64,000 nt of DNA from Bacillota bacterium (GCA_012797175.1 JAAZPQ010000194.1:294-64293); one strand, 5' to 3'; shown: positions 43,718 to 61,457, numbered from the stretch's first letter. Notes: generated by a model from the sequence alone, not told the origin. Numbers and translations: made by a program.

Positions 43718-45142
43718 GTGGCTACAGCAGTTAACGGGTGGAGCTTTATCCTTCTGTTTGCTTACCTGAGCATCGCTTTATTGCTCGCTACTTTTTTAAG
43801 AAAGCAGTTTCTCTTTTTGCAGCGCTTGATGATTCCCAATGCGATTATCGCCGGCCTGATCGTACTATTATGCAGCGGGCAGCTTTTTGGGATTATCCAG
43901 ATTTCTTTGGATCAGCTCAACCTGACAGTTTATCATCTTATAACCGGAATTTTTATTTTGATTGGTCTAAGGGAACCCCGTTGCAAGGATAACCGGGCAG
44001 TATTTACTACGACCATGATTATCGGCCAGGGTTACGCCCTTCTAGCCGTGGTCGGTTGTCTCTTTACCCTGATCTGGATCGGGGTGCTGTTCCCGAATTT
44101 TTACCCTTCTTTCTCCATGCTGCCGCTGCTCGGTTTTGGCTTTGATCAGATCATCGCTGCGGGCATCGGTTTACAATGGGAGCAGGTCGGTTTCATCGGG
44201 GGCGGCCGTGCCGGTTTTTCTTTCGGAGTGATGGGTCTTTTCTGGGCTTATTTGGGAGGCACCATTATGGTTCTCTGGTTGCGCAAGCGGCAACAGAAGA
44301 ATGGCTTGGTAAATTCGATCAGTCGCGAGGCCCAAGAAGGGATTATTCCTCGGGAAACTGAAAAGCCGGCCGGAGGATACCTGACTACCGCACCTGAAGC
44401 GATGGAATCCCTGACTTTACACCTGGCTTTAATCGGCTTTCTTTACCTGATAGCTTTTTCCGGAACAAACCAGCTCAGCGCCTGGTTGGCACAGTTTGGT
44501 AATGTCGGTCAGCTCCTTGGAGAATTTCTGTGGAGCTATAACTTTCTAATCGGTCTTCTTTTAGGTTACCTGGGCCGTATAGTAATTAACTGGCTTGAGT
44601 TGGGTTATCTTTTCGACAGCGGGACCATGCAAAGAATCTCCGGGGCCATGGTTGATTACATGATTACCGCTGCCCTGGCGGCGGTACCGCTGTTGATTTA
44701 TGTAGACTACTGGCCTGAAGTGGTCATTTTATCGCTAATCAGCGGTGTGGCCGTGGTACTTTTTGTGTATTTTACCTCTTATAAAATGCATACCGATCAT
44801 CATCTGACCAGATGCGTGTCGACATTCGGTTATCTTACCGGGACGATCGCTTCAGGATTAGCCCTGCTGCGCATGGTTGATCCTGAACTGGAATCCCCTG
44901 CGGCTGAGGAGCTAGCCTGTGCCGGCGGGCTTTCTCTTCTGATCGGTCTTCCGCTTTTTGTATTGATTAATTACCCCTTATATGGAGCCGACAGACCGCT
45001 GCCCTCTCTCCTGATCACGCTGAGCCTATTTGCTGGGTACGGCCTGCTGCTCTTTTTGATCTGGTTTTTCTGGAACCGGCGGATCGGAAAAAGTAAAAAA
45101 TCCGTTCACTCAACTGCGGGCAGCCAGGGTCCGACCCCGTAA
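43718..45142 (+). CDS. Sodium/glutamate symporter family (GltS-like) transporter
   Basis: Polytopic 474-aa protein whose N-terminal topology and motifs resemble the GltS/ESS family. Moderate confidence only. Confidence 0.5.
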   Translation: MATAVNGWSFILLFAYLSIALLLATFLRKQFLFLQRLMIPNAIIAGLIVLLCSGQLFGIIQISLDQLNLTVYHLITGIFILIGLREPRCKDNRAVFTTTMIIGQGYALLAVVGCLFTLIWIGVLFPNFYPSFSMLPLLGFGFDQIIAAGIGLQWEQVGFIGGGRAGFSFGVMGLFWAYLGGTIMVLWLRKRQQKNGLVNSISREAQEGIIPRETEKPAGGYLTTAPEAMESLTLHLALIGFLYLIAFSGTNQLSAWLAQFGNVGQLLGEFLWSYNFLIGLLLGYLGRIVINWLELGYLFDSGTMQRISGAMVDYMITAALAAVPLLIYVDYWPEVVILSLISGVAVVLFVYFTSYKMHTDHHLTRCVSTFGYLTGTIASGLALLRMVDPELESPAAEELACAGGLSLLIGLPLFVLINYPLYGADRPLPSLLITLSLFAGYGLLLFLIWFFWNRRIGKSKKSVHSTAGSQGPTP

Positions 45143-45457: not shown

Positions 45458-46528
45458 ATGAAGATATTACATACGGCAGATCTACACCTTTGTGAAGGCG
45501 CTGCCGAACGGTGGGCCGCGTTGGAGAAACTTGCCGACCTGGCCCGGGAGAAAGGTGCTGCAGTTATGGCCATCTCCGGCGACCTTTTTGATCAGCATGT
45601 TGATGCGGCGCTTCTCCGGCCCCGGCTGCGGAAAATATTTAGGGCGGGGGATTTTATCACGGTGATCCTCCCCGGTAACCATGATCATAGCGTTTATCAA
45701 GGCGGCCTTTTTTTTGGCGAGGGGGTCAGGGTGATCCGTGATTGGAGAGAGCCGGTTGAAGTTGATGGAGTTAGATTCTGGGGGCTGCCTTTTGAACCGC
45801 TGGATAGCGCTGCACTGGTTCTCAGGCTACAAAATCTAGCTGGCCTGATACCGGCAGAGGGAACCGATATCTTGCTTTATCATGGGGAGCTTCTCGATGC
45901 CTTCTATGCGCGGGAGGAGCTCGGCGATGAGGGCAACAAGCGCTATATGCCGGCCCGGCTCGATTATTTCCGGATTCTTCCTGTAAGCTGTATCCTGGCG
46001 GGCCACTTTCATAGTCGCTTTGCTGCCTGGGAACTGGGTCCGGGGCGCTTTTTTGTTTACCCGGGCTCGCCTGTCGCGGTAACGCGCCGTGAAATCGGGC
46101 CGCGCAAAGCTCATCTTTGGCAAGAAGGAGCTTCCCCTGAGGAGATAGTTCTCGATACCTTTCACTTTGTCGAGATGAGGCTAATCTTAGATCCCTTTGA
46201 CCGGGAAGAGGCCGATCCGGTCACCGTGCTCCGGCAGCGGTTGGCCGGCCTGCATCCAAAAGCGCGGCTCTTGCTAAGCGTGCAGGGGTTCTACGATGGG
46301 CAGAAATCCGGTTACAGCGAAGTAGAGCTGGTCGATGCGCTGAAAGAGGCTGCTGGTGAGAGGCTCTACGGTGAGCCGGAATTTAGCTTTATGGATATCA
46401 GGCAGGTTCTGGAAGATCCTTTGTTCCAAGCTTTTCATCAAAAATTGACCGCGGCAGACTACCCTGTGGAACAGAAGAAGCAGATCCGGAGGGCGGCAAT
46501 CCGGGCGATGATGGAGGTGCGGGCATGA
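45458..46528 (+). CDS. DNA repair exonuclease, SbcD/Mre11-like metallophosphoesterase (YhaO-like)
   Basis: MKILHTADLHL, GDLFD and LPGNHDH phosphoesterase motifs. Its stop overlaps the start of the next gene (ATGA). Confidence 0.75.
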   Translation: MKILHTADLHLCEGAAERWAALEKLADLAREKGAAVMAISGDLFDQHVDAALLRPRLRKIFRAGDFITVILPGNHDHSVYQGGLFFGEGVRVIRDWREPVEVDGVRFWGLPFEPLDSAALVLRLQNLAGLIPAEGTDILLYHGELLDAFYAREELGDEGNKRYMPARLDYFRILPVSCILAGHFHSRFAAWELGPGRFFVYPGSPVAVTRREIGPRKAHLWQEGASPEEIVLDTFHFVEMRLILDPFDREEADPVTVLRQRLAGLHPKARLLLSVQGFYDGQKSGYSEVELVDALKEAAGERLYGEPEFSFMDIRQVLEDPLFQAFHQKLTAADYPVEQKKQIRRAAIRAMMEVRA

Positions 46529-48843
46529 GGATCAGCGAGTTTTCTCTACAGCGTTACGGGCCCCTTTTAGAAAGCGGGCGCCGAAAGCTGGGCCGGTTTA
46601 ACCTTTTTTACGGCCCCAATGAGGACGGAAAAACCCTGACCATAGATGCTCTGGTCAAGCTGTTGCTAGGCAGGGGCCTGCGCCTTTTTAACGCAATTAA
46701 CCGGGTTGACGAATCGCCGGAAGGCTACCTGGTTCTTGAACATAAGGGGGCCGTGCTGAAGCTGCCCGAAGCTGGTTTCCTCCCCGGGTTGCTGCAGATA
46801 AGCCCCGAAGAATGCCGGAATATCTTTGTGGTCCGTGACAGTGACCTGGCCCTGGCCAGGGAGAGCGATTTTTACAGGGGCGTAGCTCACCGCCTGACCG
46901 GGCTGCACAGCGCGGAGATCGGGGAGATCACGGGAAAACTTCGGGAGCTGGGCCGGCTGACCCCGGGCCACGACTTTCAGAATACCAGCCCCTTGAAGCT
47001 AAAGAGCAATCTTCGGAAAGCAGGCGCGCTGGTAGATTCAATGGGCGGCCTCGTCGAGCGCCTGGAGCGGGACGGTTACGACCGGGCAGAGCAGCGACTG
47101 GTCGATCTGAAGAGACAGCTGTGCGAGAAGGAACAGCGACTGGAGCAGCTCGAGGCTGCCCGTAAGCGGGAGCTCTTTGAAAAGGGGAGCAGCGCCTTAA
47201 AGATCCTGCGAAGTACTCTTGAAAAAATTGCCGCGTTGCGAGATTTTAATTCGGCAGACGAAGCCAGATGGCAGCATCTCCTGGATAATCTTGCCGGGAA
47301 TCAGGAAAGAGAAAAGCGGCTACGTGAAGAGCTGGCCCGCGAAGAGGAGTTGGCCCGTCGCGCTGCCGGCAGGGTGAAGATTGCCACGGCTGCGGTAGAG
47401 GAGTACCTGCAGAGAAAGGAGCTTCTCGTCGATAGAGTGACACCATTACTGAAACAATCGGCCGAACTGAGTTGCACCTTGAAGAAAAAAGAGCCTGCCA
47501 GCAGGCGCCGCTTTCTGGGCCGGACCGCTATTTTTTCAGCGCTACTCTTTCTACTGGCCTTAGCCGGGCTGTTACTCCGGCCGTCCTGGTGGCTTTACCT
47601 GTTTTTAGCTGCCAGCGGCGGAATACTCCTTTATTATGGCTGGCTTAAGATCGACCTGCTGCGGGAGCGGGGAGCTCTCGCGGAGATCAACCGGGAGCTT
47701 GCCTTCGAGGCGGCCAGGCTGGGCTTTGATGCATCCGATCCGGTTGAGCTTCAGACGGCTATTGATGAATTTTACCGTGGCCTGGAGGCAGCAGAAAAGC
47801 AGTTGAGTGAAGCGGATAAAGAGGCGGCTGTCCGGAAAAATATCTGTGAGCGGCTCGCCTCCGAACTGGATGGATTACTCCGTCAGATCGACGCTGACCG
47901 GAGATCACTGCGCCAGTTGAAAGAGAAGTTGCAGGTTGATACGATCGAGGCTTACCGGGAAAAAATGCGTCTAAAAAGAGATCTGCTAAGCAAGATTGAC
48001 CGGCAGAAGGCGATTTTAGAAAGCCACTTCGGAGATGCCGAAGCGGGGGCGAATCTTGAAAAGGCGCTTGCTGCCTGGCAGAAAGAGCTCTCCTGTTATT
48101 TGCCCTTCCGCGAAAAGGCCCTGGGGCTTTCGTACAGCGAAGAGCAGGCGGCCAACCTGAAAAGTGAGCGGGAGCTGCTCCTCGAGAAGAGAGACACTTT
48201 GGGATACCGGTTGGAGCAGTATCGCGACGAGCTGCGGCTAATTGAAAAAGAGCTCAATGAGATCTTGAACCTGTTCGGTAGAAGTTACCTTCCCTGCCAG
48301 ACGATCCCGGATCTGAGAAAGGCTGTCGAAGAATTAAGCTGCTGGGTCAGTGCCCAGAAAGAGAAGAAGGGGGCTGCGGAGGCGGCGATTAAAATTTTCA
48401 ATGAAATTAAACTGGAAGAAGAAATAAAGATCGGGGAGCTTTTTGACAAAGAGAGCTCCGTGAGTGATTATTACCGCCGCATCACCGGAAACCGCTACCA
48501 GGAGGTGCTCTTTGACAGTGAAAACAAAGAGATCATGGTGCGCTGCCAGGACGGATCGTCCCTGGCAGCCTCAAAGCTTTCCGGGGGCGCCTACGACCAG
48601 CTCTATTTTGCAATCCGCCTGGCACTCGGTGAAAAACTGCTTCACGGTGAAAAAGGTTTTTTTATCCTCGACGATCCTTTTATCAAGGCCGATCCGCACC
48701 GGCTGGCCATCCAGCTGGAGATGCTTAAAACAGCTGTCTCCCGGGGCTGGCAGGTACTCTATTTTAGTGCCAAGGGTGAAGTAAAGGAGGCGCTGCAAAA
48801 AGAGATTAACCGCGGCCTGGTCAAGCTCTTCACGGTTAGCTAA
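46525..48843 (+). CDS. SbcC/RecN-like AAA ATPase with a long coiled coil interrupted by two TM helices (YhaN-like)
   Basis: N-terminal Walker A FYGPNEDGKT. C-terminal signature KLSGGAYDQ, Walker B FFILDDP and D-loop. The central coiled coil contains the hydrophobic hairpin AIFSALLFLLALAGLLL...WWLYLFLAASGGILLYYGWL. Confidence 0.7.
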   Translation: MRISEFSLQRYGPLLESGRRKLGRFNLFYGPNEDGKTLTIDALVKLLLGRGLRLFNAINRVDESPEGYLVLEHKGAVLKLPEAGFLPGLLQISPEECRNIFVVRDSDLALARESDFYRGVAHRLTGLHSAEIGEITGKLRELGRLTPGHDFQNTSPLKLKSNLRKAGALVDSMGGLVERLERDGYDRAEQRLVDLKRQLCEKEQRLEQLEAARKRELFEKGSSALKILRSTLEKIAALRDFNSADEARWQHLLDNLAGNQEREKRLREELAREEELARRAAGRVKIATAAVEEYLQRKELLVDRVTPLLKQSAELSCTLKKKEPASRRRFLGRTAIFSALLFLLALAGLLLRPSWWLYLFLAASGGILLYYGWLKIDLLRERGALAEINRELAFEAARLGFDASDPVELQTAIDEFYRGLEAAEKQLSEADKEAAVRKNICERLASELDGLLRQIDADRRSLRQLKEKLQVDTIEAYREKMRLKRDLLSKIDRQKAILESHFGDAEAGANLEKALAAWQKELSCYLPFREKALGLSYSEEQAANLKSERELLLEKRDTLGYRLEQYRDELRLIEKELNEILNLFGRSYLPCQTIPDLRKAVEELSCWVSAQKEKKGAAEAAIKIFNEIKLEEEIKIGELFDKESSVSDYYRRITGNRYQEVLFDSENKEIMVRCQDGSSLAASKLSGGAYDQLYFAIRLALGEKLLHGEKGFFILDDPFIKADPHRLAIQLEMLKTAVSRGWQVLYFSAKGEVKEALQKEINRGLVKLFTVS

Positions 48844-50176: not shown

Positions 50177-50917
50177 ATGAAATTGACCGTGCTTGGATGT
50201 TGCGGGCCTTATCCCGCAGCGGGCGGGGCCTGCTCGGGCTACCTTTTGGAAGAGGACGGATACCGGGTTTTGATTGACTGCGGCAACGGTGTCTTAAGCC
50301 GGCTACAGCAGCATCTGAAATCCTGGGAGCTGGAGGCGGTGCTACTTTCGCACCTGCATTTTGATCATACCGCCGACCTGATGGTGTTGCGCTACGCCCT
50401 GGACTATGCCCGGGCCCGGGGTTTGCGCCTTCGGCCGCTGCCGCTTTACTCGCCCTCGGAGCCGGCTTCTGAATTCCGGAGGTTGCTCTACAAAGAGCTC
50501 TTCGAACCGGTTCCGATAAGTGCTGGTGAGACGTTGTCGCTGGGGCCGTTTTTCTTAACATTCCTGGAGACGATCCATTCCTTACCTTGCCTGGCCATGC
50601 GTATCGAGACAGAAAAAGGTGTTCTGGTTTACTCCGGGGATACCGAATACTTTGACGGGCTAGCTGGGTTTGCCGCCGGTGCCGATCTTTTTCTCTGTGA
50701 AGCCAACTTTCAAGAAGAGGATATGGCACAGTCTCCCGCAAACCATCTTTCAGCAGCTGGCGCAGCCCGTCTCGCCGCCCGCGCTGGTGTAAGCAGGCTT
50801 TTGCTGACCCATTTTCACCCCGAGCGCCAGCTGGCGCTCTCCCTTGAAGAGGCCCGGAAAAACTTCGCGGCGGCGGAGTTGGCGCAGGAAGGGGAATCTT
50901 ACCGGGTTGCCAGGTAA
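50177..50917 (+). CDS. MBL-fold metallo-hydrolase (RNase Z/BN-like, short form)
   Basis: LSHLHFDHTADL HxHxDH motif; 246 aa. Confidence 0.7.
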   Translation: MKLTVLGCCGPYPAAGGACSGYLLEEDGYRVLIDCGNGVLSRLQQHLKSWELEAVLLSHLHFDHTADLMVLRYALDYARARGLRLRPLPLYSPSEPASEFRRLLYKELFEPVPISAGETLSLGPFFLTFLETIHSLPCLAMRIETEKGVLVYSGDTEYFDGLAGFAAGADLFLCEANFQEEDMAQSPANHLSAAGAARLAARAGVSRLLLTHFHPERQLALSLEEARKNFAAAELAQEGESYRVAR

Positions 50918-51094
50918 AAGAAAGGCCGCCAGCGCGCTTGCTAACGGTTAAAGTTCAGGTTAGCTTACCGGCAAAGAAGGAAAGGCAAATAAAGAGTATA
51001 TCTGATGAGATAATTTTTATTAAGCAGGAATTGGCGAACTTTTGTTGAAGTTAAAACTTAGTTGAAGTTACTGGGTACAAGTAAGTAATTTACG

Positions 51095-51250
51095 GGATTT
51101 AGTTCAGGGAAGCCGGTGCAAATCCGGCGCGGTCCCGCCACTGTGAGGGGAATCGGCCCTGCATGATGCCACTGTCACTATTGGATGATGGGAAGGCGCA
51201 GTGCTGAAAAGAACCCAAGCCAGGAGACCTACTATTTCCCGCTGGTTACA
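51095..51250 (+). promoter_or_regulatory. Cobalamin (adenosylcobalamin/B12) riboswitch aptamer
   Basis: The conserved blocks are readable in order: AGGGAAG, GGTGCAAATCC, CCCGCCACTGTGA (B12 box), GGGAAGGC and GCCAGGAGACCT. A possible promoter lies upstream: -35 TTGAAG near 51062 and -10 TAATTT near 51086. Confidence 0.85.
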
Positions 51251-51313
51251 CTGCTCTACGCGAGATGGGGAAGTGGTCTTTTTGTTTGAGCGATTCTGCT
51301 TGGGCAACTCTTG

Positions 51314-51343
51314 CCCCGTTTCTGCATAGAGACGGGGCTTTTT
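51314..51343 (+). terminator. Intrinsic terminator, likely the riboswitch expression platform
   Basis: ccccgt / acgggg stem with a 12-nt loop, followed by CTTTTT. Confidence 0.5.
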
Positions 51344-51412
51344 AATGGCTCTGTGCTGAGGTGAAATCGAAAGTTTTATTAAAGCGTACCGGTTAAACCC
51401 ATAAGGTGCTTA

Positions 51413-51450
51413 GGGGCGGGCGAGTTCCCCTGCACCCGCCCCGCTTTTTT
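51413..51450 (+). terminator. Second strong GC-rich hairpin plus T-tract in the riboswitch leader
   Basis: ggggcgggcg ... cacccgcccc stem followed by GCTTTTTT. Confidence 0.55.
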
Positions 51451-51548
51451 AGAGCTGACCGTCGCCCGGGGAGGAAGCGTTTTTTGATCTTTCAGCTAAA
51501 TTGTTGAAGCAGGATCTCTAACCGGTAAAGACCAGGGGAGTGAAGATA

Positions 51549-52286
51549 ATGAAACGGACTTATCTAGTACCGCTACTGCTGCTGTTGTTGGCGGGATTGG
51601 CGATCCCGCTGTGGTATTCCGTCGGGAGGGGTGGTGAGCAAAACGAGGCTCCGGCGGCGGAGGAGTACCTTTTGGAGAATAAACTTCAAATACCAGATGG
51701 TGGCGAGGCCGAACCTTCCCTCGAAGTTAAAGGGGAAGCCGGAACCGCACTCTCAGAAAAGGTGGAGAAAGCCGGACCGTCTCCGGAAGAGCCATCAACG
51801 GATAGGCCATCCCCGGAACAAAAAAATAAGCCACAGGCCAAGAAGCGGTCCGCCCTGAAAAGCTCTCCTTCTTCTCCCGGGCAATCAAGTAGCGTTTCTC
51901 CGAAAAAAGAAAAAAATGAGGGCTCTTCTGCAGACCGCGTTATCTGCACAGTGCAAATGAAGATTTTCGGTCAGGGAGGCAAACTGCTTTATGGGCCCAA
52001 CCGCGTCGATATCAAGGAAGGTAACCGGTGGGGAGCCACGGTTTTAGGCGCCCTAGAGGCGGCGGACGGGGTTTCTTATAATTTAAAAGAATATAGCTAT
52101 GGCCCTTATGTCGAATCGATTTATGACCTGGAGGCTAAAGGTATGTCCGGCTGGATGTACCAGGTAAATGACAAGAAAGGTGCTGTCGGGGCTGACAAAC
52201 ATGCTCTTCAATCGGACGATCGTATCATCTGGTGGTACAGTGAAAGTTATGATCAACCAGTACCAAGATGGCAAGATCTTCCATAA
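51549..52286 (+). CDS. Secreted DUF4430-domain protein, a putative cobalamin-binding accessory protein
   Basis: Signal peptide, Pro/Ser/Lys/Glu low-complexity linker, and a C-terminal domain (ICTVQMKIFGQGGKLLYGP...GWMYQVNDKKG...IIWWYSE) typical of DUF4430. ATG 51549 follows AGGGGAG. Confidence 0.6.
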   Translation: MKRTYLVPLLLLLLAGLAIPLWYSVGRGGEQNEAPAAEEYLLENKLQIPDGGEAEPSLEVKGEAGTALSEKVEKAGPSPEEPSTDRPSPEQKNKPQAKKRSALKSSPSSPGQSSSVSPKKEKNEGSSADRVICTVQMKIFGQGGKLLYGPNRVDIKEGNRWGATVLGALEAADGVSYNLKEYSYGPYVESIYDLEAKGMSGWMYQVNDKKGAVGADKHALQSDDRIIWWYSESYDQPVPRWQDLP

Positions 52287-52378
52287 CACCAGGCAGATCG
52301 ATCAAGCTAGCTTTTAACCACACCACCGTCGTGGCGGTTGTAGTTAGGTAGTTTAAAATCTGGGGAAAGGATCAGTTT

Positions 52379-53308
52379 ATGCTCGAGAATTTTTGCTATA
52401 AGCATAAGGGCGCATTTTTGCAAACTCTTCACCCGGTAGCGGCATTGACTTACCTGGCGGCATTGCTGCTGCGCCCCCTGATCTTCAACCACCCGCTTTA
52501 CCTGGTGGGCATACTGCTGGCCTCTCTGCTCGCCGCTGTGGTTTCAGATGCACTTGGCGAATGGTTTTCATATTTTACGGTGGGGCTATGGATGGCAGCT
52601 CTAGTGCTCTTTCTGAACCCCCTGCTTTGCCAGAGCGGGGAGACGGTCCTTTTGTCCCTGCCTTCTCTGCCGCTAATCGGAAGACGTTTTTTTACCCTGG
52701 AAGCGCTCTGCTACGGTGCGGCCATGGGTATACGGCTACTGGGTGTGATCACCGCTTTCGCTCTTTACAATACCCTGGTGCATCCCGATAAAGTCACCGG
52801 CCTTTTATCTCGTTTTGCCTGGAAATCGGCGCTGGTAGTCTCTATGTCGACACGGATGATCCCGGCGCTGGCCCGGGATCTAGCCGCCGCCCGGGAGGTC
52901 CAGCAGATGCGGGGGGTTGACTTCAGCTCGGGAAACTTGCGGCAGCGGCTGCAGAAATACGGTTGGCTGTTGGAGCTGCTGCTGGTCTCTTCCCTGGAAG
53001 GCTCTCTCCAGACAGCGGAAGCCATGCAGGCGCGGGCTTTTGGCTGCGGTCCTCGTAGCCATTATCGTCATGAATTGGTTCGCCCCAGGGATTATCTTTG
53101 CTTTCTAAGCGGTCTTTTTGCCCTGTTGCTCTCGGTTTATGCCCGGGTGCGGGGTTATTCTGCTTTCTCTTTTTATCCAAAGCTTGCTCAACCGGCCGCC
53201 GGAAATATCGTTCTTTTCTGGTTTCTTATGCTCATGTTCTGTTTGCTTTTTCCTTCAATCCTCGCTTGGGGGTGGCAACGCTGGCCTTTTTTGAGATCCA
53301 GGATTTAA
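52379..53308 (+). CDS. Energy-coupling factor transporter transmembrane (T) component (EcfT/CbiQ family)
   Basis: Polytopic protein with the EcfT-like coupling region (...SRMIPALARDLAAAREVQQMRG). It lies upstream of the duplicated ATPase. Confidence 0.7.
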   Translation: MLENFCYKHKGAFLQTLHPVAALTYLAALLLRPLIFNHPLYLVGILLASLLAAVVSDALGEWFSYFTVGLWMAALVLFLNPLLCQSGETVLLSLPSLPLIGRRFFTLEALCYGAAMGIRLLGVITAFALYNTLVHPDKVTGLLSRFAWKSALVVSMSTRMIPALARDLAAAREVQQMRGVDFSSGNLRQRLQKYGWLLELLLVSSLEGSLQTAEAMQARAFGCGPRSHYRHELVRPRDYLCFLSGLFALLLSVYARVRGYSAFSFYPKLAQPAAGNIVLFWFLMLMFCLLFPSILAWGWQRWPFLRSRI

Positions 53309-54969
53309 CTTACTATTACCCTACCCGCGATAAACCGTCATTGGACCAGATCAACCTGCAGATATCCGAAGGTGAGTTTCTTCTAGTTACCGGGTGCTCC
53401 GGCTCGGGGAAGTCAACCCTGGCCCGTCTGATCGCCGGGTTAATTCCTGAATTTTACGGCGGGAGGCTGCAGGGGAAGGTCTTGCTGCGCGGGGTAAAGC
53501 TTCAGGGCAGGCAGCGCAGCGCCTTGCATACCGAGGTGGGCATTGTTTTTCAAGATCCGGAGCGGCAGCTGGTGATGACCTCGGTCGAAGCGGAGATCGC
53601 CTTCGGTCTTGAAAACCTGGGGCTCCCCCGGCCGGAGATGTTCCGGCGCGTCGCTGAAGTGATGACCTTTTTAAACCTTTTGCCGCTGCGCGATCAATTT
53701 ACTGCCGCCCTTTCCGGGGGGGAGAAACAGAAGCTAGTTCTCGGCTCTGTCATCGCCATGCATCCGCGAATTCTTGTTTTGGATGAGCCGACCTCTCAGC
53801 TTGATCCGGTTGCGGCAACAGATATTTTTAACCTCGTTGAATCCTTGAATCGCGAGATGGGCTATACCGTAATTTTAATCGAGCAGCGCCTGGAGAGATG
53901 TTTTCACCTGGCCGACCGCCTGGTTGTGATGGAAGAGGGAAAAATCATCTGCGATCAGGCCCCGGGTGAGGCTGCCCGCTGGCAGGTGAAAGAGGGTTTA
54001 CCTTTTATACCGCCGGTAGCCCGGTTTTTTGCTGCTCTTTCTCCCGGGTCCGACTCCCCAATCCCCCTGACCGTAAGAGAAGGGCGCCGGGAACTGCAAA
54101 ACAGGTTGCCGTCTTTTCCGCCCCGGGTGAACAAGCGGGATTGTCGAAAAAAATCTTCAGCGCAGGAGCAACAGAAGCCTTTACTTCTCCAGGCGCGTGG
54201 TCTCTGGTATGCCTATCCGAACGGCCCGGAGGCAGTGAGGGGGTTATCTTTGCAGATAAGAGAGGGGGAGCTGGTTGCCGTCATCGGTCCCAACGCCTCC
54301 GGGAAAAGCACCCTCTTGAAGCTGTTAGCGGGGATAATCAAGCCGGACCGGGGGACGGTGCAGCTGCAAGGGATAAACACCCGCAACCTGCCGCCGTCTG
54401 AAATGGGGCGTAATATCGGCTATCTCTCTCAAAACCCAAATGATTACCTGACCCGGGATACAGTGGAGGATGAGTTGAAATTTACGCTAGAGAACTTTAA
54501 CCTGCCGGATAACGGTATCGGCATTAAAATATTACAACGGCTTGGGCTTGACCACCTCCGGCAGGCCAACCCCAGGGACCTGAGCAGTGGTGAGCGCCAG
54601 CGGGTGGCCTTAGCCTCTATCCTGGTGACGGAGCCGCCGCTGCTACTGCTCGACGAGCCCACCCGGGGGATCGATTGCCGCTTGAAAATAGGGCTCGGCA
54701 GCCTGCTCCAAGAGATAGCCTCTTCCGGTAGGACGGTTGTAGTAGTGACCCATGATCTGGAATTCGCCGTGGAATATGCCGCCAGGGTGGTAATGCTCTG
54801 TGACGGGAAGGTAGCCTGTGACGGCCCCCGGCAAATTCTCGGGGACTCTATTTTTTATGCGCCTCAAATGGCCCGACTGTTCCGGGGCCAGGCCGAGGGT
54901 ATTCTGACTGTTGATGAAGCTCTTGCCATTATGCAGGGGGGTGGCGCCGGTGCCTGTCAGGACGCTTAA
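53272..54969 (+). CDS. Fused duplicated ECF transporter ATPase (EcfA-EcfA')
   Basis: Two ABC cassettes with Walker A GCSGSGKST and GPNASGKST, signatures LSGGEKQK and LSSGERQR, and Walker B LVLDEP and LLLDEP. The start is uncertain: GTG 53272 overlaps the end of ecfT, and the ORF track starts at 53098. Confidence 0.75.
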   Translation: MATLAFFEIQDLTYYYPTRDKPSLDQINLQISEGEFLLVTGCSGSGKSTLARLIAGLIPEFYGGRLQGKVLLRGVKLQGRQRSALHTEVGIVFQDPERQLVMTSVEAEIAFGLENLGLPRPEMFRRVAEVMTFLNLLPLRDQFTAALSGGEKQKLVLGSVIAMHPRILVLDEPTSQLDPVAATDIFNLVESLNREMGYTVILIEQRLERCFHLADRLVVMEEGKIICDQAPGEAARWQVKEGLPFIPPVARFFAALSPGSDSPIPLTVREGRRELQNRLPSFPPRVNKRDCRKKSSAQEQQKPLLLQARGLWYAYPNGPEAVRGLSLQIREGELVAVIGPNASGKSTLLKLLAGIIKPDRGTVQLQGINTRNLPPSEMGRNIGYLSQNPNDYLTRDTVEDELKFTLENFNLPDNGIGIKILQRLGLDHLRQANPRDLSSGERQRVALASILVTEPPLLLLDEPTRGIDCRLKIGLGSLLQEIASSGRTVVVVTHDLEFAVEYAARVVMLCDGKVACDGPRQILGDSIFYAPQMARLFRGQAEGILTVDEALAIMQGGGAGACQDA

Positions 54970-55669
54970 CCGGCTGGCCAGGATAGCCGCTGCCGTCCTT
55001 CTGACAGCCGGAGTTTTGGCCCTGGCCAGCTGGCAGTTGCGCTTTATTCTTCAGCACTGGGCGGTTTTTGCCCTGCTTCTGCTTCTAGCTGCGCTGGTGC
55101 TCTTTTTCATTCATTTTGAAAAGAGTACGCTCTCCTCGCGGGAAGTGGGGCTGATCTCTATTCTGGCCACCCTGGCTGCTGTTAGCCGGGTGCCTTTTGC
55201 TGCACTCCCCAGCATCCAGCCGACTACCTTTTTAACGATTGTTTCAGGCTATGTTTTCGGGGCGCAAGCGGGTTTCATGGTCGGAGCCGTTGGAGCGCTG
55301 GGATCAAATTTCTTTCTGGGCCAGGGTCCTTGGACTCCCTTCCAGATGCTTTTCTGGGGTTTGGCCGGGGCGAGTGCCGGAGCGCTGGGAAAATATTTTC
55401 CCGATGTTAGCCGCGTGGGTATGACTATTTTCAGTGCCTCCTGGGGCTTCCTTTTTGGTTGGTTGATGAACTTATTTTTTGTCGTCTGCTTTATCGAGCC
55501 GCTGACCTGGTCATCTATTCTTCTGGCCTATGCTGCCAGCTTTCTATTTGACTGCATGCATGCCTTTGGTAATGTTTGCTTTTACTTGCTGTTAGGGCCT
55601 TCTGTGATCAAAGTGCTACAGCGCTTTAAAGCGAAGATCACTTATACGGAGAGTCAGGTTCCAGGGTGA
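54941..55669 (+). CDS. ECF transporter substrate-specific (S) component, putatively cobalamin-specific (CbrT-like)
   Basis: About 240 aa, six TM helices, the last gene of the riboswitch-controlled operon. The start is 54911, 54941 or 54950; a G-rich RBS lies at 54934-54940. Confidence 0.55.
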   Translation: MAPVPVRTLNRLARIAAAVLLTAGVLALASWQLRFILQHWAVFALLLLLAALVLFFIHFEKSTLSSREVGLISILATLAAVSRVPFAALPSIQPTTFLTIVSGYVFGAQAGFMVGAVGALGSNFFLGQGPWTPFQMLFWGLAGASAGALGKYFPDVSRVGMTIFSASWGFLFGWLMNLFFVVCFIEPLTWSSILLAYAASFLFDCMHAFGNVCFYLLLGPSVIKVLQRFKAKITYTESQVPG

Positions 55670-55770
55670 CCGTTTTGAGTGCGCCAGGGCGGTCCAAGCC
55701 TATTGATGGAGAACAATACTTCAAATACCGGATGGAAAATTAAACGCTGTTCGTTTGAAACATTTTAAAG

Positions 55771-56676
55771 TTAATCTTTATCGGCCAGTGCCTTGACGAT
55801 TCGCCCGGCCAGCATGCCAATCAGGCAGGTCGCCTCTTCCTGAACAGGGGGGTATTCCACCACAATGGTCAGGGCCAGCGGCGGCCGGTGGGGAAAATAA
55901 AGCAGGGCCATATCGCCGATAAGATCACTGACCGTGCCGACCTTGTTGGCTACTACCACCCGATCCTTGATGAAGCGCCCGATCCGTCCCTTGTCTACAG
56001 TTGCAGCCATCATCTTGATCCCTTTACGGGTAAGTTGCTCCCCGGCTACTTTTCTATTTTGCAAGGCCAGCAGCATCTGCGTCAGCTCGTAAGCGGTGGC
56101 CACGTTTGAAGGAAGCCCCGACTCAAGATCATAGATCTTCCGGGTGAAGGCGCTATCCTTAAGGCCAAGTCTTTCCGCCGTGGCGGCGCAGCCCGCCGCT
56201 CCGATCTGTTCAAAGATAATATTTGTGGCCACATTGTCGCTAAGGCTGATCATTAGGCCGAGGAGCTCTTCGAAGGTATAGATGTTTCCCGCAGTAACAA
56301 ATTGTAGTATTCCCGTTCCGGTAACCGGGGTTTTGCCAGCATATTTATCGCTTTCTTGAAGAACATAAGGGCTCTCCAGCGATAACTTCCCTTGCTCAAC
56401 CTGCTCCAGTGCGGCCAGCAAAAGCAGCGTCTTGATCATGCTGGCCGGGTAGAGCCGCCGGTGTGCTTCCAGCTCGGCTCGTTCTCCCGTGGCAAAGTCG
56501 TAGAGGCAGAGCCTGGTTTGCAGAGTGTTTACGGCAACCTGCTTATGCAGATCTTCTTCCAGATCGACGATAGCAGCCGCTTCTCTCCGGCAAGGCGGGT
56601 GCTGTTGCGGCCATTGTTTAAAAATCCAGGAAGGAACAGTCGCTGAGTTCAAGTAGTGCGCTTGCCTTTCCGTCAA
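55771..56676 (-). CDS. Class A beta-lactamase-like serine hydrolase (no signal peptide)
   Basis: SMIK (SxxK), SDN and a KVG(T) triad variant; 301 aa. Confidence 0.55.
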   Translation of the reverse strand: MTERQAHYLNSATVPSWIFKQWPQQHPPCRREAAAIVDLEEDLHKQVAVNTLQTRLCLYDFATGERAELEAHRRLYPASMIKTLLLLAALEQVEQGKLSLESPYVLQESDKYAGKTPVTGTGILQFVTAGNIYTFEELLGLMISLSDNVATNIIFEQIGAAGCAATAERLGLKDSAFTRKIYDLESGLPSNVATAYELTQMLLALQNRKVAGEQLTRKGIKMMAATVDKGRIGRFIKDRVVVANKVGTVSDLIGDMALLYFPHRPPLALTIVVEYPPVQEEATCLIGMLAGRIVKALADKD

Positions 56677-56903: not shown

Positions 56904-56940
56904 TCTTATAAGCAATTAAATTTTGAAACGGAGGTTGCCC

Positions 56941-58371
56941 GTGGCTGATTTACACCCTATCCTGCGCGAGTTGCCTGCGGTGGACCGGTTGCTGAAGGAA
57001 CCGGCTCTTGGTGAATTGCTCGAGCGGTTACCGCGCCGGTTGGTTCTGGCCGCGGCCCAGGAAACACTGCAGTCTTATCGACAGAAAATTTACGCCAGCA
57101 GCAAAACCGGCCAACCTGTTACCGGCCTGGACCTTTCTCCCGCTGTGCTGGCCCGTGAAGCGGCGGCGCTGGCCCTGAGCCAGTCTACGCCGAGCCTGAG
57201 GCCGGTCATAAATGCTACCGGGGTTGTTCTCCATACCAACCTGGGGAGAGCACCCCTGGCCGCGGCGGCGGCGGAAGCGGTAGCTGGAATCATGGAGCAT
57301 TACTGCAACCTGGAGATCGACCTGGAAGAAGGCGTGCGCAGTTCACGGCAGGCCCATCTGGAGGGGCTGCTCTGTGATCTGACCGGAGCCGAAGCAGCGG
57401 TAGTGGTGAATAACAATGCCGCTGCCGTTTTTCTGCTTTTGAACAGCTGTGCGACTGGCAAAGAGGTGATTGTTTCGCGGGGGCAGCTGGTGGAGATCGG
57501 CGGCTCCTTCAGGCTTCCCGAGGTGATGGCGGCCAGCGGTGCCCGCCTCGTGGAGGTAGGGACAACGAATAAGACCTACATACGTGATTACGAGATGGCG
57601 ATTAGTGACGATACCGTAGCCCTGATGAAGGTTCATCCCAGCAATTATCACCTGGTTGGCTTTACCACTTCGGTTGAAACCGCTGACTTGGCCTCCCTGG
57701 CGCATGACCGTAATCTACTGGCCATCGAGGACCTGGGCAGCGGTCTCCTCTTTGATCTAACCAGGTACGGGCTTCCCCCGGAACCGCGCGTTCAAAATAG
57801 TATTGCCGCTGGGATAGACCTGGTTGCCTTTAGCGGGGATAAACTGCTTGGAGGGCCGCAGGCAGGGATCATTGTCGGGCGGCATGAGCTTATCCAGAGG
57901 ATCCGCAGTAACCAGTTGGCCCGGATGTTACGGGTGGATAAACTGACAGTGGCCGCTCTTGAAGCCACCCTGCGTCTTTATCTGGAAGAAGAGAAGGCGC
58001 TTCAAGAAATACCGGTCTGGCGAGCGCTGACGATGCCACTTTCCCAGCTGCTGGAGCGGGTCGAAACCCTGGCTGTACTACTTCAAGATTACTTTGGTAA
58101 AGAGGGGGTTATCCTCTGGGAAGGTAGCTCCCGGGTCGGCGGCGGCAGCCTGCCTACGGCGGAGCTGCCGACAGTACTTCTTTCTTTACAGGTGCCCCAC
58201 CTGGAATCATCCGAGCTGGCCAGGCGCCTGCGCTGCGGCGACCCGCCGGTGATGGTGCGGCTGCAGCAGGAGAGGTTGCTGCTGGATCTGCGCACGGTTA
58301 ATCCGGAGCAGGACGGATTGCTTCTTAAAGCCATTCTTGCCGCCGTGGGGATGGACGGTCCTGAGAAATGA
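56941..58371 (+). CDS. selA: L-seryl-tRNA(Sec) selenium transferase
   Basis: PAVDRLL N-terminus and the PLP-lysine motif SGDKLLGGPQAG. GTG 56941 follows GGAGG; the ORF track starts at 56923. Confidence 0.85.
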   Translation: MADLHPILRELPAVDRLLKEPALGELLERLPRRLVLAAAQETLQSYRQKIYASSKTGQPVTGLDLSPAVLAREAAALALSQSTPSLRPVINATGVVLHTNLGRAPLAAAAAEAVAGIMEHYCNLEIDLEEGVRSSRQAHLEGLLCDLTGAEAAVVVNNNAAAVFLLLNSCATGKEVIVSRGQLVEIGGSFRLPEVMAASGARLVEVGTTNKTYIRDYEMAISDDTVALMKVHPSNYHLVGFTTSVETADLASLAHDRNLLAIEDLGSGLLFDLTRYGLPPEPRVQNSIAAGIDLVAFSGDKLLGGPQAGIIVGRHELIQRIRSNQLARMLRVDKLTVAALEATLRLYLEEEKALQEIPVWRALTMPLSQLLERVETLAVLLQDYFGKEGVILWEGSSRVGGGSLPTAELPTVLLSLQVPHLESSELARRLRCGDPPVMVRLQQERLLLDLRTVNPEQDGLLLKAILAAVGMDGPEK

Positions 58372-58432
58372 TTGTGCTTCTAACTTTTATTTTATCCGGC
58401 TTACGGGAAACGAACATGAAAGGCTGATTGTT

Positions 58433-60352
58433 TTGGAACATCTTATTATCGGGACTGCCGGGCATGTCGATCATGGCAAAACCGTTTTGATCAGGGCACT
58501 TACCGGGGTCGATACCGACCGTCTGCGGGAAGAAAAGAAGCGCGGCATCTCCATTGATCTCGGGTTTGCCCCCCTTGAGCTTCCTGGCGGCCGCCTGGCC
58601 GGGATTGTCGATGTCCCGGGCCACGAGCGTTTTATCCATAATATGCTTGCCGGGGCCGCCGGGATGGACCTGGTTCTGCTGGTGGTTGATGCTACCGAAG
58701 GGGTTATGCCGCAAACGAAGGAGCATCTGCAGATATTACAGCTTTTAGGATTGGAAAAAGGGATCGTCGTCATTACCAAGACTGACCTGGTTGACGAAGA
58801 GTGGCAGGAACTTATCCAGGAGGAGATCTCCGCGGAGCTGGAAGGGACCTTTCTTGCCGATGCTCCTATCCACGCCGTCTCTGCTTTTACCGGCGAAGGT
58901 ATTGACGAACTGAAAGAGCGGATCAGTTCGGCTACCCTTGAGCTGTCTCCCCGGGATTCGTCGGGGCCGCTGCGGTTGCCGGTGGATCGTTCTTTTACTA
59001 TCGCCGGCTTTGGTACCGTGATTACCGGAACACTTTTCCGCGGGAGCGTCCGGGAAGGCGATAGAGTTGAGATTGTTCCATCCGGCCTGGAGGCGCGCGT
59101 GCGCAACATTCAGGTTCATGAGCGTAACCGGCAAGAAGCCCGGGCCGGACAGCGGGTGGCGTTAAACCTGGCCGGAATTGAAAAGGCAGAAGTCCGGCGC
59201 GGCAACGTTATCGCCTCGCCCGGCTACTACCAACCGACAAAGCTTCTCGACGCTTCGCTTTCGCTGCTGCCAGGAGCTCCCCGGCCGCTTAAAAATTTGG
59301 ATCCGGTTCACTTATTTTTGGGAACCGCCCGGGTGGTGGCGCGCCTGTTGCTGCTTGATTGCGATGAGCTCAGGCCGGGTGAAAAATGCTTCGTTCAGTG
59401 CCGCCTTAACCACCCCCTGGTAGCAGACCGGGCCGACCGTTTTATTATCCGTTCATACTCACCGATGACCACGATTGGGGGAGGGCGGGTGCTCGACCCC
59501 GCTCCGGCACGGCATCGCCGTTTTCGCCGGGCCTCTTTTGCACACCTTGAAGATATGGAGCAGGACCCGGAGGCGGGAGGAGACGAGGCTTTCATCTACC
59601 AGAAACTATCCGGCCTGCTTATCGCCGACCCGGCTCACCTGGCCCGGGAGACTCGCCTGGACGAGAAGCGGCTGCATGATATCCTTAAGCGGCTAACCCA
59701 AAAAGGGGTTGTCGAGAAGCTTGGCCAAAGCTATCTTACCCGGAAGTGCTTTGAAGAATGGGAACGCCGACTGTTGCACGAAGTAGAAGAATATCATCGT
59801 GATCATCCCTTGCTACCGGGTATCTCCCGGGCACGGTTAAAGGGAGCCTTGCCTCGTGAACTGGGCTTGCGGGAATATGACCTTTTTCTAGAGCGGCTAC
59901 AGGAGCAGGGGCAGGTCGTGCTGCAAGGAGATCTGGTCAGCCGGAAAGGTTTTACTCCCAGGCCTTCTACGCAAGAGCAGGCGCAGCTTGCACGTTTAAC
60001 GGAAGTGTATGCCGGGGCCTTGTTCCAGCCTCCCACGGTTAAGGAGGCACTCTCCCGGGCGGGGATTGAAAGCCAGCAGCCGGAAGACTATTACAGCTAC
60101 CTGGTAAACCGCGGCCAGCTGGTGAAAATAAATGACGAGCTTTATTTTCACCGGGAGGCCTACGATGAAGCGGTTGAGCTGCTGCGCGCTCATTTCACTA
60201 CTGCCGATACAATTACCCTGGCCCAGTTTAGAGACCTTACCGGCAGTTCGCGGAAGATCGTGCAGCCGTTACTCGAGCATTTCGACTATTTAAAGCTGAC
60301 CCGCCGCGTCGGCGATCACCGCGTCCCCGTGAAACTGTTAAACCATGGCTAG
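58433..60352 (+). CDS. selB: Selenocysteine-specific translation elongation factor SelB
   Basis: GTAGHVDHGKT (G1) and DVPGHE (G3) motifs, with a long C-terminal winged-helix extension. It overlaps the selA stop. The start is probably TTG 58433 (MEHLIIGTAGHVDHGKT). Confidence 0.85.
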   Translation: MEHLIIGTAGHVDHGKTVLIRALTGVDTDRLREEKKRGISIDLGFAPLELPGGRLAGIVDVPGHERFIHNMLAGAAGMDLVLLVVDATEGVMPQTKEHLQILQLLGLEKGIVVITKTDLVDEEWQELIQEEISAELEGTFLADAPIHAVSAFTGEGIDELKERISSATLELSPRDSSGPLRLPVDRSFTIAGFGTVITGTLFRGSVREGDRVEIVPSGLEARVRNIQVHERNRQEARAGQRVALNLAGIEKAEVRRGNVIASPGYYQPTKLLDASLSLLPGAPRPLKNLDPVHLFLGTARVVARLLLLDCDELRPGEKCFVQCRLNHPLVADRADRFIIRSYSPMTTIGGGRVLDPAPARHRRFRRASFAHLEDMEQDPEAGGDEAFIYQKLSGLLIADPAHLARETRLDEKRLHDILKRLTQKGVVEKLGQSYLTRKCFEEWERRLLHEVEEYHRDHPLLPGISRARLKGALPRELGLREYDLFLERLQEQGQVVLQGDLVSRKGFTPRPSTQEQAQLARLTEVYAGALFQPPTVKEALSRAGIESQQPEDYYSYLVNRGQLVKINDELYFHREAYDEAVELLRAHFTTADTITLAQFRDLTGSSRKIVQPLLEHFDYLKLTRRVGDHRVPVKLLNHG

Positions 60353-60407: not shown

Positions 60408-61457
60408 ATGAAAAAGGAAAAGATCCGGCTTACATCGATGACCTCAAGCGCTGGGTGAGCGGCAAAAATTGGGCCTGAAGCCCTGGCACAGGTTCTGTGC
60501 TGTTTACCGTCTGTCGACGATCCGGCTTATCTAAACCGGCATCAGCACTATGCTGATGCCGGAGTCTACCGCCTCTCTGAAGAGATGGCCTTGGTCCAGA
60601 CTATTGATTTTTTCACTCCGGTGGTTGACGATCCCTATCTTTTCGGGCAAATTGCGGCGGCCAATGCTCTCAGCGATCTTTACACCATGGGGGCAAAGCC
60701 ACTGACGGCTTTAAACCTGGTCTGCTTTCCATCTGAGAAACAGCCTTTGAATATATTGGCGGAGATTTTGCGTGGCGGATTTGATAAAATTAGGGAATCC
60801 GGGGCGGTCTTGATTGGGGGTCACAGCGTTGAAGATGACGAACCGAAGTACGGGCTGGCCGCGACCGGGGTGGTTGACCCGCGGCAGATGATTACCAGCG
60901 CCGGTGCTCGTCCCGGCGATCGGCTCTTTTTAACTAAACCCCTCGGCAGCGGCATTATCACCACCGCGATAAAGGGCGACCAGCTCACCGTTCAGGAGGC
61001 CGGGGAGGTCTTGCAGGGAATGGCTGCTCTCAATGCTGCTGCTGCGGAGGCAATGGTTGAGGCCGGGGCCTCTGCGGCCACCGATATTACTGGTTTTGGC
61101 CTGCTTGGCCATCTACATGAGATGCTTGTCGCCAGCGGCGCCGGAGCTAAAATATATCGTAAAGCGGTTCCTGTTTACCACGGGACCGGGGAGATGGCGG
61201 CGAAAGGACTGATACCCGGGGGAGCCTACCGTAATCTGAGCTATTTTCAAGGCTCGGTTTACTGGGCGGGAGAGGAGCAGAAAAAGGAGGAATGCCTCTT
61301 AATCTTTTTTGATCCTCAGACTTCGGGGGGCCTATTGATTGCCGTGCCGCCAGAGCGCGCTGCAGCTTTGAGCGCAGCTTTGGAAAAGCGGAATCTCAGG
61401 AAAGATTATATCGGGGAGATTACCGCGGACGCCCCGGGGAAAATAACCGTATCTTGA
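60408..61457 (+). CDS. selD: Selenide, water dikinase SelD, with an in-frame UGA (selenocysteine) at 60456-60458
   Basis: ATG 60408 follows GGGAGGTG. Translation reads MKKEKIRLTSMTSSAG-U-AAKIGPEALAQVL, aligning with E. coli SelD [21 protein letters not shown] at the Cys/Sec17 position. Downstream TIDFFTPVVDDPYLFGQIAAANALSDLYTMGAKP matches SelD strongly. The ORF track reports only the part after the TGA (60585..61457). Confidence 0.8.

Follow-up and report, generated by a model that had tools for sequence, protein, structure and literature searches.

A riboswitch-preceded CbrT-type transporter operon of a Bacillota bacterium and the probable origin of its second leader hairpin in a gene deletion

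We analysed a 64,000-nt stretch of DNA from a Bacillota bacterium (GCA_012797175.1, JAAZPQ010000194.1:294-64293), hereafter called the window in its whole length, which carries a cobalamin riboswitch, a leader with two strong hairpins and an uptake operon. Four co-directional genes follow the leader with overlaps or short gaps, and encode, in this order, a DUF4430 protein and the T, fused A-A′ and S components of an energy-coupling factor (ECF) transporter. This composition had been proposed in an initial annotation made from the DNA alone and is borne out by Pfam and TIGR matches. The coordinates of all features are given in Table 1. The term relatives denotes the contigs that encode the closest relatives of the S protein, and individual loci are cited by L number.

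Table 1. Features of the riboswitch leader and operon, in window coordinates.
Feature	Position	Strand	Basis
Cobalamin riboswitch aptamer	51083..51250	+	RF00174 covariance model
Post-aptamer hairpin (P13-like regulatory helix)	51249..51275	+	RNAalifold, folded leader
Predicted antiterminator	51260..51325	+	51260-51275 pairs with 51309-51325, small hairpin enclosed; RNAfold
Terminator 1	51313..51343	+	terminator scan; 11-bp stem 51313-51338, then TTTTT
Putative deletion junction, approximate (ancestral gene 1, ~1.5 kb)	51360..51373	+	alignment ends
Putative relic of the ancestral gene 1-gene 2 intercistronic region, now 5′ leader	51374..51548	+	mafft/blastn versus L086, L088, L092, L091
Hairpin/terminator 2	51413..51450	+	GC-rich stem 51413-51442, GC, TTTTTT
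DUF4430 (SLBB) protein, 245 aa	51549..52286	+	PF14478, C-terminal, E 8e-16
ECF T component (EcfT/CbiQ-like), 309 aa	52379..53308	+	PF02361, E 7e-11
Fused EcfA-EcfA′ ATPase, ~565 aa	~53272..54969	+	two PF00005 (ABC_tran) domains
S component, CbrT family, 239 aa	54950..55669	+	PF12822

The aptamer belongs to Rfam family RF00174. A cmscan of the 64-kb window recovered it at 105.1 bits (E 2.9e-25) against a gathering score of 31.5 bits, with model positions 1-189 all matched, and in the alignment the core GGGAA...GGUG.AA.UCC and the GCCACUG box (B12 box GCCACTG, 51167-51173, inside the aptamer) fit the family consensus. The riboswitch and its conserved blocks had been recognized beforehand, with the absence of an RF00174 match named as the result that would disprove them; the Rfam search gave the opposite outcome. 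No other Rfam family scored above threshold in the 64 kb, and a permissive Rfam search of 50900-51600 returned no second RNA element, just sub-threshold chance matches. The global folding energy is uninformative, the whole leader being no stabler than shuffled sequence (z = -1.5). The aptamer is 85% identical to its orthologue in L086. Immediately 5′ of it lies a 13-nt direct repeat, TT(T/A)GTTGAAGTTA, present in two copies 17 nt apart (51041-51070) and missing from the L086 leader; its core GTTGAAG recurs once near 51503, 3′ of hairpin 2. These copies may represent −35-like boxes or the site of a regulator; a promoter scan called no promoter there.

The first gene of the operon encodes a protein with an N-terminal hydrophobic helix (residues 6-25) and a C-terminal PF14478 domain (residues 165-234; 58.7 bits versus a gathering score of 23.8). 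In the AlphaFold2 model, a disordered P/S/E/K-rich linker of ~100 aa (residues ~31-123) leads to a beta-grasp domain spanning residues 131-231, with a predicted local confidence (pLDDT) of 88-97. Two large homology searches with this protein gave few matches, as exact words in common with relatives are scarce in both the low-complexity linker and the short domain, and the model therefore rests on a shallow alignment of nine sequences. PDB searches by sequence, with the single protein or a profile, gave nothing relevant, and only the fold comparison succeeded. The best Foldseek PDB matches are the isolated beta domain of human transcobalamin (5NP4/5NO0; template-modelling (TM) score 0.74-0.77, root-mean-square deviation 2.3 Å, E ~1e-6), and the top 17 are all transcobalamin, haptocorrin or intrinsic factor, the next being the bacterial DUF4430 structure 3U7Z. 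The modelled domain thus has the fold of the transcobalamin beta domain; the initial annotation had described DUF4430 as a family associated with B12 binding. That annotation also described the protein as secreted. The N-terminal hydrophobic helix is indeed present. Since a lipobox cysteine and a clear signal-peptidase motif are both missing, however, this helix probably holds the protein in the membrane rather than being removed. Helix and disordered linker together are the features expected at the cell surface, and the linker is probably long enough to span the wall. In the literature searched, we found no experiment on whether a bacterial DUF4430 protein binds corrinoids.

The three genes that follow constitute a complete ECF transporter. 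With phmmer, the T component matches the EcfT chains 5D3M_D, 4HZU_T and 4HUQ_T. The ATPase gene, called at 562-567 aa, begins inside the end of T and runs into the start of S, and its product exceeds the cutoffs of both TIGR04520 (381 bits, cutoff 315) and TIGR04521 (336 bits, cutoff 330). The S gene shares 20 nt with the 3′ end of the ATPase gene. A single-sequence PDB search with the S component matched 6FNP_A (CbrT, E 8e-10), and a profile of 15 S-family members aligned to residues 10-176 of the 182 of this chain at E 8e-18. Solved structures exist for other S-component families; no chain from these was matched in the PDB, the sole other entry listed being an unrelated signal peptidase subunit (E 0.22). 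The homology therefore covers most of the length of CbrT and points to no other S-component family, in keeping with the cobalamin-type S component foreseen from the DNA; clustering with biotin- or thiamine-specific proteins had been put forward as the refuting result, and the S component matches no such protein. Relative to Lactobacillus delbrueckii CbrT it carries an N-terminal extension of ~55 aa. NCBIfam has no model for either the S component or the DUF4430 protein of the window. Rodionov et al. are said to have given CbrT its name in 2009. A T component, two ECF-type ABC domains and an S component encoded beside its own module define a dedicated, group I ECF transporter, and that is the arrangement found here.

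A cobalt importer of the CbiMNQO type would share part of this profile, since PF02361 (CbiQ) and the TIGR01166 cbiO subfamily both match and B12 riboswitches commonly regulate cobalt transporters. The T component, however, reaches only 19 bits with the CbiQ equivalog, whose cutoff is 112, no CbiM or CbiN homologue was found, and the matches of the S component are to PF12822 and CbrT and not to CbiM. A partner with the transcobalamin fold would, moreover, have no role in the uptake of a metal ion, and we give the cobalt reading next to no weight.

Between the aptamer and the first gene, the initial annotation had placed two hairpin-plus-T-tract structures and interpreted them as an unusually long expression platform. 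Both structures exist, each consisting of a GC-rich stem and a U-tract: terminator 1 has 11 pairs, 7 of them G-C, a U5 tract and a folding energy of -20.2 kcal/mol, and hairpin 2, GGGGCGGG...CCCGCCCC, has 8 bp G-C plus inner pairs, a U6 tract and a folding energy of -23.0 kcal/mol. The interpretation is not supported, since a predicted antiterminator links only terminator 1 to the aptamer and hairpin 2 is orthologous to an intercistronic hairpin of the relatives. A terminator scan found 11 sites versus 8.2 expected from shuffles; this is no enrichment, and the case for both hairpins therefore lies in their strength and their conservation at orthologous positions. The scan missed hairpin 2 solely on account of its loop, which exceeds the permitted length. 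Five independent assemblies of the same species carry an identical leader, which is therefore not an assembly artefact. The leader also contains a 28-nt inverted repeat (51274-51301 and 51507-51534, 71% complementary), which may be due to chance; one arm is in the U-rich stretch after the post-aptamer hairpin and the other immediately 5′ of the DUF4430 ribosome-binding site.

The region between the aptamer and terminator 1 has the makings of a switch. The first 34 nt 3′ of the aptamer show almost no variation among relatives, and in the RNAalifold consensus the post-aptamer hairpin keeps its 10 pairs in all of 8 relatives with a nearly invariant sequence. Its 3′ half doubles as the 5′ strand of a predicted antiterminator, which folds at -27.5 kcal/mol in the nascent transcript 51249-51327, before the 3′ arm of terminator 1 exists. 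This antiterminator takes the 5′ arm of terminator 1 and is incompatible with both the post-aptamer hairpin and the terminator; L086 and L088 show an analogous pairing, AUGGGG/CCCCGU, so that the mutually exclusive structures, although predicted, are partly conserved. Terminator 1 itself is kept in 7 relatives with compensatory changes in 2 pairs. We propose that, when B12 is scarce, 51260-51275 would pair with the 5′ arm of terminator 1 and let the polymerase read through, and that bound cobalamin would favor the post-aptamer hairpin, which sequesters 51260-51275, lets terminator 1 form and stops transcription. The riboswitch is thus predicted to work as a standard transcriptional attenuation switch.

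The relatives suggest where hairpin 2 came from. L086/L087, L088 and L092 are syntenic with the window (M48 peptidase, MBL-fold protein, the operon, a convergent beta-lactamase2 gene, SelA, SelB and SelD), and in each of them an extra first gene, gene 1, of 485-489 aa stands after the riboswitch and one terminator. Its product comprises a signal sequence, a DUF4430 domain, an alpha/alpha toroid-like region with weak Prenyltrans and squalene-cyclase (SQHop) matches, and a C-terminal hydrophobic anchor; its DUF4430 domain and toroid make it the bacterial equivalent of full-length transcobalamin. Gene 1 is followed by an intergenic region of 122-195 nt and then by a ~236-aa DUF4430 gene, T, AA′ and S. 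By nucleotide alignment, window positions 51094-51348, with the aptamer and terminator 1, are 85% identical to L086 1677-1928, and positions 51407-51447, with hairpin 2, align at 79% identity with L086 3502-3543, in the interval between genes 1 and 2. On the 5′ side, the L086 leader can be followed in the window to ~51359; on the 3′ side, homology to the sequence that stands right after the gene-1 stop codon in L088 and L092 (TTTTATT...CGGTTAAACCC) starts at 51374. The spacing agrees with a deletion of gene 1: the aptamer and gene 1 are ~150 nt apart in the relatives and the gap between genes 1 and 2 reaches ~195 nt, versus 298 nt from aptamer to start codon in the window.

No remnant of gene 1 was found in the window by tblastn with three gene-1 proteins, except for the paralogous DUF4430 domain of the retained gene. 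The toroid part of the relatives' gene 1 likewise found no toroid there (tblastn, best E 0.1 or higher), so that the window has neither the fused nor the adjacent toroid of a two-component transcobalamin analogue; the toroid is present in L086, L088, L090, L091, L092 and L094. L091, the nearest relative by S protein (74% identity), has kept gene 1. A strong GC-rich hairpin occupies the gene 1-gene 2 position in every relative examined (n=9), ~1.6 kb downstream and past the extra first gene. A T5-T6 tract comes after it in L088 and L092 and a T3 tract in L091, with no T-tract in L086, L090, L094, L089 or L006.

From these alignments, a clean deletion of gene 1 in the lineage of the window is the most economical reading. 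The deletion would have run almost exactly from the ribosome-binding region of gene 1 to its stop codon and would have brought two hairpins within 70 nt of each other in one leader. Because gene 1 appears to have been deleted and the orthologous hairpin stands between genes 1 and 2 of the relatives, we infer that hairpin 2 is an inherited intercistronic element outside the expression platform of the riboswitch. Gene 1 seems to have been lost repeatedly in this clade: L093 also lacks it and has a single terminator, and in L089 (1433-3500) gene 1 is split into several short open reading frames (ORFs) in different frames with DUF4430, T, AA′ and S intact downstream, which reflects either a pseudogene, and hence a second independent loss, or indel errors in a metagenome-assembled genome. 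In the relatives the hairpin probably determines how much gene-1 mRNA is made relative to transporter mRNA, either through partial termination or by stabilizing the 3′ end. In the window it is probably, at most, a constitutive partial attenuator, an RNA-stability element or a structural element of the 5′ untranslated region.

The alternative that both terminators form a purpose-built tandem platform, each under riboswitch control for tighter or two-step attenuation, draws on the presence of two strong hairpins with T-tracts on the same strand between the aptamer and the first gene, an arrangement fixed in the five assemblies. We hold it to be unlikely. The orthologue of hairpin 2 follows a 1.5-kb gene, far from the aptamer, in L086, L088, L092 and L091, and folding reveals no alternative pairing that ties hairpin 2 to the aptamer, in contrast to the clear one for terminator 1. 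The single terminator of L093, likewise without gene 1, also argues against this design.

A further possibility is that hairpin 2, with its full T6 tract, simply ends a short riboswitch transcript and that the operon is expressed from its own promoter 3′ of 51450, largely independently of B12; the occurrence of GTTGAAG twice upstream of the aptamer and again beyond hairpin 2 would fit such a scheme. The promoter scan, however, found no sigma-70-like promoter on the plus strand in 50900-55900, neither upstream of the aptamer nor after hairpin 2, and some read-through is therefore needed if the operon is expressed. In the relatives, moreover, the hairpin is intra-operonic, with T-tracts in L088 and L092, and their transporter genes must be expressed through it. 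An own promoter thus appears very unlikely, and the deletion relic remains our preferred account of hairpin 2.

The surroundings of the operon differ among the relatives in two further respects. Extra cobalamin riboswitches lie a few kb 3′ of the S gene in L090 (9062-9285), L093 (9490-9630), L081 (11396-11586 and 12023-12163) and L007 (8883-9083), those of L090 and L093 preceding small or unannotated genes (141 aa and 304 aa) without a Pfam match; the window has no counterpart. A DUF4198 (PF10670) gene stands shortly 3′ of S in L089 (13595-14338), L090 (8086-8841), L093 (7990-8730) and L094 (9801-10550); in L089 and L094 its neighbour is an Opp-type ABC system or an SBP_bac_5 protein. The DUF4198 gene is missing at the window locus, where the convergent beta-lactamase2-family gene comes after S instead.

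The operon is a member of a widespread family. A genome scan with the S-family alignment gave 80 loci, mostly from Bacillota (among them Moorella, Neomoorella, Desulfotomaculum relatives, Pelotomaculum, Bacillus, Paenibacillus, Clostridium and Lactobacillaceae), with a few from Actinomycetota and archaea. In 75 of the 80 the T component could be located, and all 75 keep the order T-AA′-S. An HMM search of the ORFs found at least one SLBB/DUF4430 domain in 69 of these 75 loci; two or more SLBB domains lie upstream of T in 46, the SLBB gene ends directly at the start of T in 42, and an alpha/alpha toroid homologue is nearby in 59. A same-strand cobalamin riboswitch upstream of T was detected by nhmmer, within the fetched sequence, in 32 of the 75, and Rfam confirmed it in the submitted subset (L086, L088, L089, L090, L066, L034 and L014).

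Taken together, we consider it probable that the window encodes a corrinoid uptake operon under riboswitch attenuation, with a membrane-tethered binder and with hairpin 2 as a deletion relic. In the proposed mechanism, the T component, the fused A-A′ ATPase and the CbrT-family S component would form a dedicated ECF transporter whose S component binds and translocates corrinoids. Judged from sequence homology, the substrate is expected to be a corrinoid, either vitamin B12 or cobinamide. The tethered DUF4430 protein would most likely capture the corrinoid outside the wall and pass it to the S component.

Several observations weigh against this proposal. The identity between the S component and CbrT is low, and the single-sequence evidence is one local alignment (E 8e-10). 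Gene 1 could reside elsewhere in the genome, outside the 64-kb window. No compensatory pairs were found in hairpin 2, the RNAalifold alignment of 9 relatives being misregistered, and the support for this hairpin comes from per-sequence folding and positional homology. If hairpin 2 with its T6 were an efficient terminator, it would leave the operon nearly silent, as no downstream promoter was detected. Transcobalamin holds B12 between its alpha and beta domains, and a protein with the beta domain only may therefore, by analogy, bind B12 weakly or not at all. The substrate, too, may vary within the family: many members, including those of the Bacillus cereus group and Lactobacillaceae, have no detectable B12 riboswitch, and heme uptake has been reported for the lsa1836-1840 operon of Lactobacillus sakei (bioRxiv 10.1101/864751).

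These last two points also support a reading of the window operon as an importer of heme or another tetrapyrrole, in which the transcobalamin-like protein scavenges heme as proposed for L. sakei, whose operon has the same architecture and for which supporting experiments were reported (10.1101/864751). A high-scoring cobalamin riboswitch nevertheless precedes the operon in the window and in its close relatives, and the S component is homologous to CbrT, where hemin does not compete with cobalamin transport (PMC5997447). We therefore regard heme import as quite unlikely here; for the family members without a riboswitch it is possible. Corrinoid uptake is the reading that we retain for the window.

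The textbook view is that ECF transporters need no extracytoplasmic binding protein. With more doubt than belief, we raise the joint possibility that the beta-only tethered SLBB protein is a sufficient corrinoid receptor feeding the CbrT-type S component and that hairpin 2 has been co-opted as a constitutive second attenuator, setting a low ceiling on expression. If true, the beta-only receptor would make this a natural minimal ECF transporter with an extracytoplasmic binding protein, contrary to that view. The locus is a well-resolved example of the widespread putative Gram-positive B12 importers that combine an ECF-CbrT-type transporter with transcobalamin-like surface proteins. Set beside the relatives that keep the toroid, this minimal version offers a clean comparison for corrinoid binding by the beta domain alone. 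The same comparison bears on whether ECF transporters use external binding proteins, a question that the window locus does not raise by itself. The leader also carries a warning for annotators: two terminators in tandem behind a riboswitch may be the scar of a gene deletion and not a regulatory design.

Other genes of the window deserve brief mention. The SelD gene (60408-61457, plus strand) has an apparent in-frame TGA at 60456-60458 within the motif SSAG-U-AAKIGPE, and its mechanically called ORF begins only at 60585; SelD is probably a selenocysteine-containing protein. Upstream of it are SelA (56923-58371) and, from synteny with L086, a probable SelB (58337-60352). Neither of two large plus-strand ORFs, at 43718-45142 (474 aa) and 46525-48843 (772 aa), matches Pfam at E 1e-5 or better; the latter comes right after a calcineurin-like phosphoesterase gene (45458-46528), which it overlaps, and this pair is kept in L001-L005.

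Comparison with known systems places the operon within an already described class. Burroughs et al. 2007 (PMC1796856) report, in the passages on these operons, extracellular transcobalamin-like SLBB proteins encoded with CbiO-like ATPases and CbiQ-like proteins, often as two paralogues of which one is fused to an alpha/alpha toroid, and predict B12 scavenging for them. L086, L088, L090, L092 and L094 fit this class, as those passages describe it, exactly, whereas the window has lost the toroid paralogue and retains only the short membrane-tethered SLBB protein. The same passages mention neither a riboswitch nor a CbrT-type S component, both of which are present in the window. A B12-scavenging ECF system with an extracellular binder, as proposed in the initial annotation, is hence still the best reading of the locus, although the idea is not new, having been preceded by that work and by the study of ECF-CbrT (PMC1796856, PMC5997447). 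What is new is the origin of the double terminator, read from the alignments, as the scar of a gene deletion.

ECF-CbrT of L. delbrueckii (PDB 6FNP; Santos et al. 2018, PMC5997447) transports cobalamin and cobinamide in a manner that depends on ATP, with a dissociation constant of ~9 nM for cyanocobalamin. Its S component is homologous to that of the window, and its ECF module likewise consists of T and two ATPase domains. It is a group II system, however, with a solitary cbrT in an nrdJ-cbrS-cbrT-pduO cluster and a shared module (PMC5997447), whereas the window encodes a dedicated group I transporter with fused ATPases and an extended S component, and adds a DUF4430 surface protein and a riboswitch. 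The L. sakei operon comprises the same gene set, namely S, fused A-A′, T and transcobalamin beta-like and alpha-like proteins; a riboswitch is not mentioned for it (10.1101/864751), whereas the window operon is predicted to be riboswitch-controlled and lacks the alpha-like partner.

Human transcobalamin, intrinsic factor and haptocorrin have the beta-domain fold in common with the C-terminal domain of the window DUF4430 protein, at 14-19% identity. They are soluble, whereas the window protein is probably membrane-tethered, and neither this protein nor the locus has an alpha domain. Finally, as in class I (adenosylcobalamin-type) cobalamin riboswitches with transcriptional platforms, the window has the full RF00174 architecture including the peripheral extension, followed by a post-aptamer regulatory hairpin and a predicted antiterminator/terminator switch. 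Once hairpin 2 is taken as foreign to the platform, the riboswitch of the window shows nothing unusual beside this class.

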